From: Candidatus Poribacteria bacterium
Lineage (GTDB): Bacteria > Poribacteria > WGA-4E > PCPOR2b
Reading direction: 5' to 3'
NCBI GenBank assembly: GCA_965218095.1
Contig: OZ244587.1
Span: forward strand, 4,672,001 to 4,736,000
Length of the DNA stretch: 64,000 nt
The translations under genes were made by a program, and so were the position numbers. Every line of letters starts with the position of its first letter. Position 1 is the stretch's first letter. Below are positions 28,350 to 34,070 of the stretch, piece by piece. The notes under the pieces were generated by a model. That model worked only from the letters and a program-made list of their open reading frames with translations, was not told where the DNA came from and searched no databases.

Positions 28350-29231
28350 CTACACAAAGCATTCCCTGATAAACTTCTTGAAGATGTTCCGGTTCTTCCG
28401 GTTGTTGTACTTGTAACACGCCTCAGCGATGTAGAGCGAAACATGCTTGTAGTGGTGATGTGTACCATGAAACGCACGTTTCACCAGCGACCAGAACCCT
28501 TCAATCGTGTTTGTGTGGGTATTACCGTCCACGTACTGCCAGTTCTTGTGTCTGATGACATGGTGAGGCATGAGCCCATCAACCGCCTCATACGATGAGA
28601 ACTCATCTGTCATTAGAACTGAATCCTTCGGCTTCTCAATAACGCCTTTGATGAACCCCAAAACGCCCTTACGACTCAAACTCGTAGCCACACGCGCCAC
28701 AACATTCCCAGCCCGTTCAACAGCACCGATAACGGGCGTTTTCTTCGTGCCTCTACCTCGCTTGCTCGGTGGAGGCAAGTTCCCGTCCTTGTCTTTTCGT
28801 CGTCGGGGCTTACCGCCCACGTAGGTTTCATCGCATTCAATAATTCCTCTCAGTAAAACCTTGCCCTTTCTACCCATCTCAGACCTGATTCGTTTCATCA
28901 TGAACCAAGCTGAGGGTTGCGTTAAGTCCAAATGACGAGCCATTTGACAACTTGATAGGCTTTTCTTCGCATCGTTCATTAACAGGATAGCCATAAACCA
29001 CTTCTGAAGTGGAATCTGTGTTCCTTGAAATATCGTTCCCTGTAACACATTGAAACTTGACTTACAAGTATGGCAATTCCAACGACCAATTATGCTAGCT
29101 TCATTCTTCGGTGCAACCTTTTTACTTTCGCAATATGGACACTCAGGTTTGCCACCCCAGCGGATAGTTTCTAAGTGTTTAATACAACTCTCTTGGTCAG
29201 AAAATCGTTCTACAGCATCAAACAAGTTCAT
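28350..29231 (-). CDS. IS1595-family transposase
   Basis: CPYC/CHTC zinc ribbon, DETYVGG, TDE, HTNTIEGFWSLVKR, YNNR. Confidence 0.97.
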   Translation of the reverse strand: MNLFDAVERFSDQESCIKHLETIRWGGKPECPYCESKKVAPKNEASIIGRWNCHTCKSSFNVLQGTIFQGTQIPLQKWFMAILLMNDAKKSLSSCQMARHLDLTQPSAWFMMKRIRSEMGRKGKVLLRGIIECDETYVGGKPRRRKDKDGNLPPPSKRGRGTKKTPVIGAVERAGNVVARVATSLSRKGVLGFIKGVIEKPKDSVLMTDEFSSYEAVDGLMPHHVIRHKNWQYVDGNTHTNTIEGFWSLVKRAFHGTHHHYKHVSLYIAEACYKYNNRKNRNIFKKFIRECFV

Positions 29232-29383: not shown

Positions 29384-31270
29384 TTACCAATCGAGTGATT
29401 GCTCGTCGATGTACCGCGTTGTCTTCTTCCATAGTGTGACGTCGTCCCGGTAGTGGTCGCGTTGGTAAAGCGGGCAAAGCACCCCCGGCGGATCGATACA
29501 CACGACGTCGTGACCCTTGCGTACCAGGAAATACCGCTGATTGTCGATGTTTATGCAATCGGTCCGCTCCGCAATGGGAAAGGTAAATTGTACAACCTGA
29601 TCTGCATGAACCTGCCCCACCTGCGCGTATCGGCCATTGAAGCTAACCGCACGTGGGGTCTCGCTGACCATACATTGCACTTGACCCCGTTCGACCCAGG
29701 CCGGCATCCGCACGGACAGGGCACAATTCTGTTTGACAGTTATATCCACTTGGCCCATGTAGGGAATGTGACTGTTCACATCCACCGCCTCGTGGGCGCG
29801 ATTTAGCAGCAGATTGACCTTGACCCGGTCACCTTCGATATGGACCACATTTCGCCACACGTCATACAGGCCGAAAGTTGCATTGGCAGTGCAACAGTGC
29901 ATGATGCCCTGCACATGGCCCAGGCGTTCAGCCTTTGCGCCCTCCAGGATGTGCCGGCCAAACTCTACCCACTCATTGGGGCTCTGCCAGCCTGCAAACG
30001 CCCCAATATTGCGCTCACCGACCCGATCCGTCGTCATCGGCCATGTGCCATCGGGCTCGATCTGTGAAGGCGGATCGCCCACATGCAAGCGGTGGATCCA
30101 GTCATGGCGAAGGAATTGTCCCTCCGCCAATTGGTTCCGGGCCCAACGATCCGCATCGTCCCAATATTCATCGCCCAAGCCTGCTTCAGCCAGACGAACC
30201 GCGATCCGGATCATGTCGCCCACTTCACAGAGTTCACACGTTTGGTCCCTTGCAAGGCAGGTTTGGGGCCTTGCAAGACCAACCGACTCTGGAAAAAAGC
30301 CTGTTAAACACTCACCAAACGTCTTGGCGACTGGAAACGCATCACAGGCAAAATCAAGCAACTGCTGATCGCCAGATGCCAGGGCGTACTCCAGGCAGGT
30401 CAGGATGGTCATGGCGTGATGGTGAAAATGATTGACATGATGGCGGGGGCCCTGCGGGTCAGGGTTGTCGGGTAGGAATTCAAAGTTAGGCCCAAAATAC
30501 TGGCTCGCTTTGGGCATGTAACGGCACAGTCGCCCCGCAAGTTCCAGTGCCGGCTCATAGCCGCTGACTCGATAGAAATAAACGAGCCGCCGTGCAGGCC
30601 ACATACCATAGGCGGCAAATGTTCCCAGGGGTCGGGGCAGCGCCGGATTGCCCTGCTCTCCCGGCGCGTAGTGCCATTGTTGCAGGTAGGCCATATCACC
30701 CGTGGAGACTACCAGGCGCCGCAATCCATCCACAATGCCTCGACCAATTGGCTCCCAGAAATCCCTGTCGTCCAGAACCGCAAAGGTTGCTGCTGCGCCC
30801 AACGCCAGACCGTTGACCTGCTGATCGATAACTTGTTCGCCCTCAAAGACACCTGTCCCTCCGAACCGCAGATAGGGAAGGCCCTCCATCGGTGTCGCTA
30901 CCAGTCCATCAGGCGCGATCATGTGGAGCAACACTTCCTTCCAGCACTGCTCCACATGGAGTCCTTGCTCGGAACCACTCATCAGCCGCATGCGGGGCAC
31001 CACGTCCATGAACTTGATCATGATGCCGGTATCCGAGATATCATGATACATCACCGGCGGGTTGAAACGGAAAGAGACTTTCCAATAGACCCGGTAATCC
31101 GCCTCCGGATCGGTCGGCTCCGTCATACCATTGACCGCTAACCTGGCCCGTTCAGCCAGATCGAGCGTGGCGGGGGTCATCAATTCGTAGTGCCTTCCCC
31201 GGCACTTGCCCTCGGGTGGGATCGGCGCATCAGGTTGAATATAGCGAATACCACTTCCAATAGTTGCCAT
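29384..31270 (-). CDS. GH127/146-like (beta-L-arabinofuranosidase-like) protein
   Basis: FFPE...CELC, HCC, VRMPAW; GAGGAG RBS. Confidence 0.65.
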   Translation of the reverse strand: MATIGSGIRYIQPDAPIPPEGKCRGRHYELMTPATLDLAERARLAVNGMTEPTDPEADYRVYWKVSFRFNPPVMYHDISDTGIMIKFMDVVPRMRLMSGSEQGLHVEQCWKEVLLHMIAPDGLVATPMEGLPYLRFGGTGVFEGEQVIDQQVNGLALGAAATFAVLDDRDFWEPIGRGIVDGLRRLVVSTGDMAYLQQWHYAPGEQGNPALPRPLGTFAAYGMWPARRLVYFYRVSGYEPALELAGRLCRYMPKASQYFGPNFEFLPDNPDPQGPRHHVNHFHHHAMTILTCLEYALASGDQQLLDFACDAFPVAKTFGECLTGFFPESVGLARPQTCLARDQTCELCEVGDMIRIAVRLAEAGLGDEYWDDADRWARNQLAEGQFLRHDWIHRLHVGDPPSQIEPDGTWPMTTDRVGERNIGAFAGWQSPNEWVEFGRHILEGAKAERLGHVQGIMHCCTANATFGLYDVWRNVVHIEGDRVKVNLLLNRAHEAVDVNSHIPYMGQVDITVKQNCALSVRMPAWVERGQVQCMVSETPRAVSFNGRYAQVGQVHADQVVQFTFPIAERTDCINIDNQRYFLVRKGHDVVCIDPPGVLCPLYQRDHYRDDVTLWKKTTRYIDEQSLDW

Positions 31271-31360
31271 AGTCAATCTCCTCTATTATATGAGTTTTTC
31301 GTTGTAGTGGTGACTGGGATACACACCTGTGCAAAGCTGGCACGCGGGCTCCCAGATAAC

Positions 31361-32109
31361 GTTTTGGATAGGTAGATTCCTTGCGGAATTTTCCCCCCAT
31401 CAGAACTGTACGTGCGATTTTCACCGCATACAGCTCGCACTGTCAATTACTGATTATCTTTAATAAACGGATAGAGAATCTTTAGGCTGACTGGATTCCA
31501 AGTCTATCCTAAAAGATAATCTCAGCCCTACTTACTTTACCTCATGCAGAACATGGGGATAAGTCGCCAAGTTTGCAAGCAGTGACTCGATATGCGCTCA
31601 TCTTCCCTTAATCTATTCATGATGTATTTCAGTACGTTGACACTAGGCAGGCTCGGTATCTCTACCTATCTGCCCTCCTCTCCCATATTTCTCAGAGAGA
31701 AACTTAGGGACTTTCCTGTTCTCACATAATGCACATTTCAGATGATTTAGGCTCTGACTATACCCCGAAGTTGTTAGCTTACTCGACGGTGTAAATGTTA
31801 GACACCACCCTTTAGCTCGTACCTTTTGGTTATAGGCTGGTAACAGGGAGTTGGTTAGTCTCCCCCATTGTAGATTCACCTATTCTATCCTCACGAGGCT
31901 TCTATCATCAGTTCAGTTTTCGCGTTAGCCATGTCATCTTTAGCCTGACGTCCCAATCTCTAGGGTCTACATTCCCATTCAGGGATTCGCCTTTTCCCTT
32001 TGCTTCCTACCCTGCCGTTTCCGACAACGCGGTTAAGATAAGGCTTGCAATTGTAAGCTATTGCTGATGGATTTCCACCATCAGTACATTATGCCACCCA
32101 GAAACGCAC
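31361..32109 (-). ncRNA. ORF-less group II intron, IIB/CL1-like, about 750 nt
   Basis: 5' GTGCG at 32109; 34-nt domain V GAGCTGTATGCGGTGAAAATCGCACGTACAGTTC (31436-31403); domain VI ending ACCTATCCAAAAC; EBS1 and EBS2 candidates pair with the 5' flank; exact 3' base uncertain. Confidence 0.93.
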
Positions 32110-32227
32110 AACGTTTTGGATAGTGTGTCCGTGGATGCTTGGCCTCTTATGTGTTAATCCGGTGGCATCATGCTGTCGGTATGGGGGATTGACACCAGTT
32201 GCTGCGAGCAAGATTAACCCTCAAGAT

Positions 32228-33985
32228 TCATCGACGCGCCGACGCAACCGTGTCGAGCTTCTCGATCAATTCGGCGATCCTGTTGCGAGCGGCCATGAGT
32301 TGGTCATTCGTCGGCATAGGACGAGGCCCCTCTTGGTAAATGGTACCGCCGCTGATGTGCTTAGGGACAGCAAGCCATCTTTGGGCCTCCACAATCGCTC
32401 GGCCGGTTTTCGGGTCAACACGGGGGAGTCTACTCGCTTGGACGACCGCAGACTCAAGCAGCTTGAGATATTCGTAGTCCTCCATTCCTTCCCGGAAGGC
32501 CTCAAAAGCAACGGCCTTCAATATCTCCACGGGATTGTCGGGACCAGCATGAGGATTATTCGGGGCCGCATGGGGATAGCATGGCGCCCAGTCGTAGCCC
32601 GCCGGTTTATCATCGACCGGAAACGGCCTCTTGGCCCACGCTGCTTGTTGGGTCAGGGACCAGTGCAGTACGCCGTCCAGTTTGGCCCTGTAAATCCCCC
32701 AAAATATCGCTCGAGCATAGATGCTGGCCCTGCTGAGGTTGTAACCCATCACCTTGCAACCCCATGAATGGAACAGATCGACTGTCTCAGGATGCAGCAG
32801 ATCGAATTTACAGGCAATCCAATCAACGTTTCTTATCTGTCCATGCTCTTTCCAGAGTGGATGGTGCATGGCCATCATGGTGGTTATGCCGCCGTATCGC
32901 CGCTTGAGATCCGCGTGGATCTTTTCCTGGGCAGGCAACCACTCAGTTATCGGTTCGTCAAAACCATAGAGAAAACAGTGATCAATCAATCCCGCCTCTT
33001 TTAGCTTTGCGATCGGTTCGTCCAACTTGTTATAAAGCCTCTGTCGCTCGGCATCTGTTACATCGACAACCTTGCCCTGCTCGTTGTACTTAAAGGGTCT
33101 ATGCTGTCTGCTGACACGCATAAGGCTCACTAAATTCGCTCCAGATTCAACCCGCCTGCAGACTCTTCTAACTGATGGCGCGTTTTCGTGATTGTAAATT
33201 CGCCCGGGGGAAAACCTGTGGGCCGCCGCCATATCATCAATCATGTTCATAAATTCTTCACTGGTAGCACCACCATCGGTATAAGACGTAACGACAGGAA
33301 GTGAAGGTGGTTTAGGAAGAGTAAAATCGCGTACCGTCAGGTCAACTGTAACGCCCATGGAACCGAAGTGGTCAACCTCGATCATGATTTTGCCGCGATA
33401 ACTTCCAGGCGGCGTTTCGGGTGGAACGTACACAGTAACCCAGACAACATGTTGAAAACCAGGATATACATCAAATTTCTTGATGTCCGGACGCAGATAG
33501 AATGGTACGGTAAGAAACCGGTCTTCATCGCCCTCCATGGCGGCTTCGTTGGTGATCCGCCGGTAACCCATCGGGGCAATCTCGACGTGCCTAGAGTCAA
33601 TCTGGCCTGGACCATTCTTCTGCACAAGCGGCCCCGCCTTGATGCGTGCCGTAGTTAAGGGATCGTCCTTGGGCAGCAGGATAAACGCAAATGGCTCATA
33701 CTCGTTGCGGGCAGCGGTGATGTCTACTTTCTGTCCAAGAACGCCGGCGTAACTTCGAGACTGATAAAGAAAATCGTAGGCGTGAGGGTGAAGATGATGC
33801 TTCTTGTAATATGGCTGGATCAACGCCGCAGAGGGATGAGTAATAATACCTATTCCAAATGGCGCGCCCGGAAATTCCTGATCGAGTCGTTTACGCAGTG
33901 GAGTCTGGGCTTGTAAGACGTCAGCAACAAGCGAGATACTCATCAGCCCAAAAGCAAAACCGATTGCCAATGATTTCTTCTTCAT
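32228..33985 (-). CDS. Secreted DUF4091 / GH123-like glycoside hydrolase
   Basis: Signal peptide; ARNEYEPF, VWVTVYVP...PGSYRG, YGFDEP, REGMEDYEYL. Confidence 0.8.
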   Translation of the reverse strand: MKKKSLAIGFAFGLMSISLVADVLQAQTPLRKRLDQEFPGAPFGIGIITHPSAALIQPYYKKHHLHPHAYDFLYQSRSYAGVLGQKVDITAARNEYEPFAFILLPKDDPLTTARIKAGPLVQKNGPGQIDSRHVEIAPMGYRRITNEAAMEGDEDRFLTVPFYLRPDIKKFDVYPGFQHVVWVTVYVPPETPPGSYRGKIMIEVDHFGSMGVTVDLTVRDFTLPKPPSLPVVTSYTDGGATSEEFMNMIDDMAAAHRFSPGRIYNHENAPSVRRVCRRVESGANLVSLMRVSRQHRPFKYNEQGKVVDVTDAERQRLYNKLDEPIAKLKEAGLIDHCFLYGFDEPITEWLPAQEKIHADLKRRYGGITTMMAMHHPLWKEHGQIRNVDWIACKFDLLHPETVDLFHSWGCKVMGYNLSRASIYARAIFWGIYRAKLDGVLHWSLTQQAAWAKRPFPVDDKPAGYDWAPCYPHAAPNNPHAGPDNPVEILKAVAFEAFREGMEDYEYLKLLESAVVQASRLPRVDPKTGRAIVEAQRWLAVPKHISGGTIYQEGPRPMPTNDQLMAARNRIAELIEKLDTVASARR

Positions 33986-34070
33986 TTCTACAAAATTCCT
34001 TTCTGTTTGAAATTTACTTAGCACCTGCCAACAAACCGCCATCAACGCCGACATCCGTCCAAAGCTGCCC

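Follow-up and report, generated by a model that had tools for sequence, protein, structure and literature searches.

A 14-bp direct repeat around a group II intron in a Candidatus Poribacteria genome, probably a one-off target-site duplication

Introduction

We analysed a 64,000-nucleotide stretch of the genome of a Candidatus Poribacteria bacterium (assembly GCA_965218095.1, contig OZ244587.1, positions 4,672,001 to 4,736,000; hereafter the window, with positions counted from its first letter) and found between two of its genes, on the minus strand, a group II intron without an open reading frame (ORF) that carries an exact 14-bp direct repeat at its borders. One copy of the repeat is the target site directly before the intron and the other spans the intron's 3' end. 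We think it probable that the repeat is a one-off target-site duplication of 14 bp, made in a single insertion event in which the cDNA was primed at a 7-nt microhomology. Its 3' junction aside, the intron is best read as an ordinary ORF-less IIB-like group II intron. Group II retrohoming is taught as leaving no target duplication, and no report of such a duplication at a group II intron was found in the literature searched, which did not extend to supplementary files.

Results

The repeat is a feature of one intron copy

On the minus strand CTATCCAAAACGTT was found at 32123-32110, immediately before the GTGCG that opens the intron (32109), and again at 31371-31358 across the intron's 3' end, in agreement with an earlier note made from the sequence alone. 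In the whole 6,350,489-bp genome it occurs only twice on both strands together, at the two intron borders. When up to two mismatches were allowed, the window held 2 matches against 0.34 expected, a count that was reached in 6 of 100 shuffles. A better null for the repeat is the intron family itself. The genome holds 28 matches to the intron region, with 74% identity over nearly the full length for the best match other than the intron itself and 76% for one fragment, and the intron is 69-76% identical to the family copies. Pairing of the ends gave 12 further copies in the same genome, five of them ORF-less (715-803 nt) and seven longer (1407-2452 nt), and six genomes of a neighbouring genus contributed 20 more.

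We compared the last 20 nt of each 5' exon with the last 15 nt of the intron plus the first 25 nt of the 3' exon. The paired set was made up without unpaired ends and without two weak 3' matches in the genome (near 3231213 and 5249703); the 5' border of copy L056 was set 1 nt off, and L054, which had two 5' candidates, entered with the longer one (985 nt). The longest word common to both borders measured 14 nt in the intron under study, between 3 and 8 nt in the 32 other paired copies and no more than 8 nt in 1056 mismatched 5'/3' pairs. The repeat is thus a feature of this copy alone and not of the intron family. Half of it, CTATCCA (31371-31365), is conserved domain VI sequence and at the same time the microhomology, whereas the remaining seven letters, AAACGTT (31364-31358), are identical to the intron-binding site 1 (IBS1) of the locus and replace the terminal TAC of the family.

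Shorter words were shared by the borders of a few other copies. In c707 (G000:C1:707444-709174) the 8-nt 5' exon word CTCAATTG recurs in the 3' exon from its ninth base, and in L050 (G014:C1:2677000-2678200, minus strand) the 8-nt word CAAGTTGC does so with the same offset; 8-nt words were shared in 12 of the 1056 pairs of the null. Additionally, c469 (G000:C1:468785-469559, minus strand) has GAAAT directly at both borders and an exon-binding site 1 (EBS1) loop without a match to its 5' exon. The GAAAT pair may be due to chance, as 5-nt words are common in the null.

The 3' end departs from that of the family

The 3' ends of the other copies follow the pattern CTACCTAT-NNN-TAC in 16 of 18 cases in the same genome and in all 20 cases in the six related genomes (36 of 38), the two ends outside the pattern being weak partial matches. 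The NNN together with the following T pairs with the 5' strand of the base of domain VI, as seen in the combinations GATGG/CCAT, GAAGC/GCTT, GAAGG/CCTT, GAGTC/GACT, GAAGT/ACTT and GAGTG/CACT. Across the family AC follows each basal 3' strand of domain VI, and the splice site lies 7 nt past the branch-point A. We assigned the branch-point A and the basal helix from this covariation and not from the single-sequence fold of domains V-VI, which gave domain VI in a different register, without a bulged A.

In the copy under study the 5' strand is still GATGG, which predicts CCATAC, and the sequence found is CCA followed by AAACGTT. The TAC has been lost and the basal 3' strand CCA(T) is cut to CCA, so that the position 7 nt past the branch-point A has no AY end and reads T-CCA-AAACGTT instead of T-NNN-TAC. 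A substitute 3' splice site may be offered by AAAAC/G (here and below a slash marks a junction), 8 nt past the branch-point A. The earlier note had placed the intron's 3' end within the repeat; the repeat does span it, but the true 3' end in the family lies 6 nt beyond CCTAT. Furthermore, the note had taken the repeat as a property by which the intron rebuilds its target, a view that homologues with ordinary ends and unrelated exons would contradict. All 32 other paired copies lack the repeat, 36 of 38 other ends are the ordinary ..TAC and the exons are unrelated.

Filled and empty alleles in public runs

Part of the stretch is carried by 11 public runs from four studies, of which we compared X3, X6, X8 and X10 with the window. 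The empty sites that the earlier note proposed to look for were found in X8 and X10. A contig of X8 (6333 nt, depth 19.6) runs from 31150-31357 straight into 32110-32350. At this joint 752 nt are skipped, 14 letters fit either side, nothing lies between and a single 14-mer is left; the flanks differ from the window at 31221, 31232 and 32221. The same joint is present in a 326-nt contig of X10, an RNA library, with C at 32221 and the letters of the window at 31221 and 31232. The filled allele therefore differs from the empty one by the addition of GTGCG...CTAC and of a second 14-mer.

The 3' junction of the filled allele was found in a contig of X6 (31191-31394) and the 5' junction in a contig of X3 (31705-32139), both with 0 differences. 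As both junctions were assembled independently in other runs, an assembly join, which the earlier note had kept in view, is ruled out. It is extremely unlikely that the repeat is an artefact of assembly or a product of chance. Conserved domain VI sequence accounts for seven of the 14 letters, which leaves only seven to be explained, but the 14-mer stands only twice in 6.35 Mb, exactly at the two borders, the maximum of the null is 8, other runs reproduce the junctions with 0 differences, and in the empty allele the 14-mer is present exactly once.

In X3 the contigs of the intron had a depth of 2.2-2.9 (0 differences) compared to 18-24.5 for the flanks, and at the 14-mer the contigs of the flanks either stop or fork; record 8 extends beyond 31371 by 16 letters, and record 15 has its end at 32110. 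Such a pattern is in keeping with a mixed population in which most cells have the empty site, the empty path being deduced from the contig ends. Such co-occurrence, as it seems to be, of filled and empty alleles would also have put a template at hand for a different history, in which the intron arrived by normal retrohoming and a later break near its 3' end was repaired from an intron-less copy, on a sister chromosome or on incoming DNA. One end would have engaged at CTATCCA and the other in the downstream flank, with AAACGTT replacing TAC. The product would be identical to the one observed and no unusual reverse-transcription step would be needed. However, recombination would have had just 7 nt to work with on one side, at the exact place where a whole copy of the target is kept, the fact that this homology is the IBS2 region would play no part, and neither an intermediate nor a reciprocal product was seen in the four compared runs. 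We regard a later repair of this kind as quite unlikely.

Synteny that would allow a comparison of empty sites was not found among 40 relatives: a 2201-nt query made of the intron and its flanks matched parts of the intron only, apart from one weak match of 126 nt to the downstream gene.

Base pairing with the target and a second homing site

EBS2 (GGATAG) pairs with IBS2 (CTATCC) at six of six positions, and EBS1 (AACATTT) pairs with IBS1 (AAACGTT) at six of seven, with one C.A mismatch. In other copies the EBS2 loop reads CCTTT, CCTTA, CCTCC, CTCCT or CTTCC. Based on an alignment of domain I inspected by eye, the EBS2 loop complements the 5' exon in 10 of 12 other copies, and the EBS1 loop complements the last 6-7 nt of the exon clearly in 6 of 12, nearly (with one indel) in 2 and not at all in 4. 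At the level of predicted pairing, this covariation confirms the EBS2 and EBS1 that the earlier note had assigned. A further pairing was found for EBS3, the variable base in the conserved GGGGTA-N-AGTCAG: it pairs with the first base of the 3' exon in 22 Watson-Crick and one wobble combination among the 28 copies scored, while 4 further copies were without the motif. Three other copies have U as EBS3 and all continue with A in the 3' exon. Since EBS3 is U here (31760), A is predicted as the first base of the 3' exon, and A stands at 31357.

The downstream 14-mer together with this A forms a complete second homing site, with IBS2 matched at six of six positions, IBS1 at six of seven and the A matching EBS3. 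That a fresh homing site is left downstream, as the earlier note had proposed, therefore holds for this insertion; it does not hold for each insertion, as the repeat is absent from the 32 other paired copies. The downstream site would in our judgement probably be a by-product of a faulty insertion. Tandem arrays, which such sites would allow according to the note, found no counterpart, as no tandem copy was present in the genome or in the four compared runs.

Many introns of the family stand directly after a Shine-Dalgarno-like motif and a spacer of 6-8 nt, either at a start codon or beside one, for instance AAAGGAGAAGATT/intron/ATGAAG and ...ACTATA/intron/TGAGAG. Such copies were found at G000:C1 positions 1598536, 469559, 2598356, 1927835, 5863431, 598220, 267583 and 5526113, and also in L047 (G022) and L048 (G021). 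The ribosome-binding site seems to be used as IBS2 in these cases, judging from the predicted pairing of the loops CCTTT, CCTTA, CCTCC, CTCCT and CTTCC with the motif; a description of such use did not surface in a literature search. The near-identical copies c3601 (G000:C1:3601485-3602927) and c4514 (4514987-4516393) have the EBS1 loop TATTCTGCTATTA in common, which pairs with their different 5' exons in two registers, TATTCT and CTGCTA.

Can the tail belong to the intron RNA?

An alternative to a duplication made at the locus, which matches the idea of the earlier note minus the integrons, is that the tail is part of the intron RNA, which would then measure 752 nt, end in ...CUAUCCAAAACGUU, splice at GUU/A, have arrived by normal retrohoming and rebuild its target at each insertion. 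What the empty allele lacks is precisely the 752 nt GTGCG...GTT, EBS3 = U pairs best with the A after GTT, removal of the 752 nt restores an uninterrupted sequence, and the joined form is present in the RNA library X10. Tandem insertion of a IIB1 intron with U as EBS3 is also known, from the part of PMC12584367 that deals with it. Nevertheless, 36 of 38 other 3' ends finish in ..TAC at 7 nt past the branch-point A, whereas a GUU end would lie 11 nt past it and would not be AY; the 5' strand of domain VI is still GATGG, without a compensating change; and the tail is identical to the locus even at letters that are free of EBS pairing. The joined contig of X10 probably comes from an intron-less strain, given its C at 32221, which is unlike the intron-bearing haplotype; X10 has no near-identical contig over parts of the intron and no listed contig with 0 differences inside it.

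A carried tail would also lead one to look for siblings, and no sibling of the lineage was found. Within a sample of 176 genomes of the phylum the closest sequence was the fragment with 76% identity in the same genome, followed by 69% in the other 175 genomes. A 20-mer over EBS2 gave 0 matches in genome contigs and in metagenome contigs, a 23-mer over the aberrant 3' end gave 0 in metagenome contigs and a 26-mer over the 3' copy and its flank gave 0 in genome contigs, in collections that may omit the window's own genome. Elsewhere in the genome seven target-like sites stand empty, and the lack of tandem copies in the genome and the compared runs points the same way. Altogether we consider it unlikely that the intron RNA brought the tail with it. 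The two histories predict different ends at other loci, ..CCAAAACGTT if the tail is carried and ..CCATAC if it is a scar made at this site.

The two could also be combined: a variant born of a faulty insertion might now splice at GUU/A, carry a copy of its own IBS2-IBS1 at its 3' end and restore, downstream of each new copy, a complete homing site in which A serves as IBS3. We give this variant little credence. If it were true, the intron could form head-to-tail arrays and be removed precisely at the DNA level via the repeats, and the empty alleles would include true revertants.

A proposed target-site duplication primed at a microhomology

Under the target-site duplication that we favour, the original site would have read ...CACA CTATCCAAAACGTT/ATCTGGG. 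The intron RNA would have recognised it by EBS2 (GGAUAG), EBS1 (AACAUUU) and EBS3 (U) and would have reverse-spliced after GTT, because IBS2, IBS1 and the A stand in the right register and the 5' junction is exact to the base. Normally the bottom strand is cut by the HNH endonuclease about 9-10 nt downstream and the cDNA is primed from there. In the event proposed here the primer would have been a bottom-strand 3' end situated 8-14 nt upstream of the site, in the stretch displaced by the EBS/IBS pairing. This strand, ...CCCAGAT-AACGTTT-TGGATAG-3', would anneal by its last seven bases to CUAUCCA in domain VI, 3 nt from the intron's 3' end; its TGGATAG-3', equal in sense to EBS2, is complementary to domain VI because the EBS2 of this copy happens to complement domain VI. 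Extension would copy the intron minus its last three bases (UAC) and would keep the target on both sides, giving intron...CTAC-CTATCCA-AAACGTT-ATCTGGG, in which the sequence on the 3' side of the insert becomes native target at some point within CTATCCA. The upstream 3' end may have come from the nascent strand of a replication fork, which serves as primer in endonuclease-independent mobility, from a nick or from a misplaced endonuclease cut. Inferred in this account are how the cDNA was primed, where the upstream 3' end came from and that the empty allele is ancestral.

Two details of the junction are consistent with this course of events. The A after the second copy is the native GTT/A junction, as EBS3 = U predicts, and the 3' copy has the spacer A and the EBS1-mismatched C, which EBS pairing does not dictate and local templating would give. 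It is described in the relevant passages of bioRxiv 10.1101/2022.03.14.484287 that group II intron reverse transcriptases anneal and extend DNA 3' ends at microhomologies, long ones included.

Several points weigh against the proposed duplication. No second event of the kind was seen, and the mechanism rests on one junction. The family protein has an HNH domain, which is expected to cut downstream and not upstream, and the model thus has to assume a primer that is misplaced or independent of the endonuclease. The sole maturase-domain match of the genome is in a frameshifted gene. That EBS2 complements the intron's own domain VI is a coincidence of about 1 in 4096 per register by our own arithmetic. 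From the cumulative GC skew, a weak and noisy signal, neither the origin and terminus nor the lagging-strand template could be placed. Moreover, the empty-site data fit an intron already carrying the tail equally well and cannot separate the two. The empty allele could also be a revertant, as the flanking repeats could mediate precise deletion of the intron by a deletion between them. Such precise excision had been suggested in the earlier note: an empty allele with a single 14-mer is what excision would leave, but it also fits a site that was never filled.

Anatomy of the intron and its surroundings

The features of the intron are given in Table 1. It has the conserved group II 5' end GUGYG, present as GTGCG at 32109-32105, and its first 150 nt align with 15 other copies in the genome. 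The Rfam model RF00029 matches domains V and VI at 31438-31363 with 63.3 bits (gathering score 40, E 4.2e-10). An intron-encoded protein was not found in this copy, in which the longest open stretch between stops spans 78 amino acids.

Table 1. Position of the intron, its targets and its pairing elements in the window.
Feature	Position	Strand	Basis or remark
5' copy of the 14-mer, authentic target	32110-32123	minus	abuts first base of intron; register agrees with family alignment
IBS2 CTATCC	32123-32118	minus	within 5' 14-mer
Spacer A	32117	minus	between IBS2 and IBS1
IBS1 AAACGTT	32116-32110	minus	within 5' 14-mer
752-nt insert: GTGCG...CTAC intron, then second 14-mer	31358-32109	minus	missing from empty allele
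EBS2 GGATAG	31885-31890	minus	loop covarying with 5' exons
EBS1 AACATTT	31793-31799	minus	loop of GGTGT/ACACC stem
EBS3 candidate U in GGGGTA-U-AGTCAG	31760	minus	pairs with first 3' exon base across family
Domain V	31403-31436	minus	Rfam alignment
Domain VI	31365-31401	minus	basal helix covariation in family
Domain VI basal 5' strand GATGG	31401-31397	minus	family covariation
Bulged branch-point A	31369	minus	A of CCTAT; family covariation
3' copy of the 14-mer	31358-31371	minus	CTATCCA 31371-31365 and AAACGTT 31364-31358
A, first base of native 3' exon (IBS3)	31357	minus	matches EBS3 = U; directly after single 14-mer in empty allele

The upstream neighbour of the intron is a weakly GH123-like gene (32228-34054; matches with E 2.5e-4 and 8.2e-4, both short of the Pfam cut-offs), after the stop of which the intron lies. 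Downstream, a gene of 630 amino acids begins with an ATG at 31269 and has no match in Pfam. Just downstream of the latter gene, in an AT-richer stretch, the window has an IS1595-family transposase (28353-29231, minus strand; DDE_Tnp_IS1595, E 1.6e-34, and a zinc ribbon).

The protein of the family was represented by c598 (G000:C1:598220-600671), which encodes RVT_N, RVT_1, GIIM and HNH domains in two pieces of 246 and 374 amino acids separated by a frameshift. It is the only match to GIIM, the group II maturase domain, in the genome; the other long copies have short open frames only. A fragment of the family protein was closest to PDB 6me0_C, 'Maturase reverse transcriptase' (E 2.5e-57), which we take to be the TeI4h particle of Thermosynechococcus elongatus with a maturase reverse transcriptase of the IIB type. 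L047 (G022:C5:2204850-2207400) was tried as an ORF-bearing relative and rejected, as its 2024-nt intron contains an IS3-type transposase and no intron protein. The transposase is a 313-amino-acid open frame that resembles integrase-core transposases by eye only.

Of the 14 ORF-less copies compared from a single sub-lineage in the neighbouring genus (L042-L044, L050-L060; G014, G017, G022, G023), 13 have a 5' exon like AACC(C/T)AAGTTGCTA(G/T), which in two cases shows 2-3 changes; the 3' exons vary. L056 has a different 5' exon. The spread of this sub-lineage is ordinary retrohoming or retrotransposition, and no flanking repeat is present. The copy at G000:C1 1927835 (minus strand) agrees with the one at 2598356 (plus strand) in every letter of the 40-nt 5' flank and of the first 50 nt, and one of the two matches only intron positions 20-507 (query positions 51-538); they look like a duplicated locus with a truncated copy.

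No tie to integrons

The earlier note had linked the repeat to integrons, as part of an intron-based system for building cassettes. Integron R' cores have the consensus GTTRRRY, and the GTTATCT at the repeat does not agree with it, its T and C not being purines. Pairs of attC-like cores were not enriched in the window (2 compared to 4.8 +/- 2.3 in 200 shuffles) and the nearest was 19 kb off. None of the nine genome matches to the integron integrase IntI (TIGR02249) reached the cut-off and none was in the window. The best of them is a pseudogene (G000:C1:1536854-1537808; 216.3 bits against a cut-off of 265, 7 stops) at 3.1 Mb from the window. With no IntI at the cut-off, no enrichment of attC and no R' core, there is no support for an intron system that builds cassettes in connection with integrons. 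Introns of the IIC-attC type lack EBS2 and insert at attC or after a hairpin. We rejected this assignment as well, since covarying EBS2 and EBS3 are present and the family protein is closest to 6me0_C. The likeness to IIC-attC introns is limited to the idea of an intron at recombination sites; the intron described here has EBS2, EBS3 and, in its family, an endonuclease domain.

Discussion

The closest parallel at the level of the genome is found in the IIB introns of T. elongatus. According to the passages of PMC2882425 on those introns, many ORF-less copies (~0.7-0.8 kb) stand beside ORF-bearing ones in one genome and the EBS have diverged into sub-lineages with different targets, with good EBS/IBS pairing at most sites, all of which is similar here. 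The ORF-less TeI3 is mobilised in trans by TeI4 proteins (PMC2882425, same passages). In contrast, the only maturase-bearing gene found in the present genome is frameshifted, and the passages report neither a target duplication nor a shortened 3' end, both of which are seen at our locus.

The re-use of a site has been described for the IIB1 intron EcKTE56.groEL, as far as the relevant part of PMC12584367 goes. Its EBS3 is U, as here, so that the site followed by G, the first base of the intron, can be used again, and in E. coli this U gives head-to-tail tandem copies. There the second copy enters the original site upstream, with no duplication, whereas here a second complete site lies downstream and no tandem was seen.

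In target-primed reverse transcription by retrotransposons that lack long terminal repeats (non-LTR retrotransposons), staggered nicks lead to target-site duplications. As in these elements, a short target is duplicated around a reverse-transcribed insert in our case, and the 3' junction lies at a microhomology between primer and RNA. The difference is that the insert is a ribozyme intron, the 5' junction of which is set by base pairing and reverse splicing, and that the duplication is exceptional, being present in 1 of 33 paired copies. The priming that we propose is the same enzyme step as the microhomology priming by group II reverse transcriptases in the passages cited above from bioRxiv 10.1101/2022.03.14.484287, although those concern the repair of double-strand breaks in vitro and in E. 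coli and not intron integration.

The case concerns one event in one lineage. It is a natural population polymorphism in which the filled and the empty allele can be compared base by base, with a 14-bp duplication and a microhomology. The locus offers two sites for re-use, the downstream 14-mer with its A and, given that EBS3 is U, the upstream 14-mer followed by G. If the proposed priming is true, the junction would be the trace, left in vivo, of a DNA end that annealed within the intron and primed the cDNA. It would then represent a single-step route by which an intron can gain a 3' tail, and an event of the type that forms a mechanistic link between group II introns and non-LTR retrotransposons.

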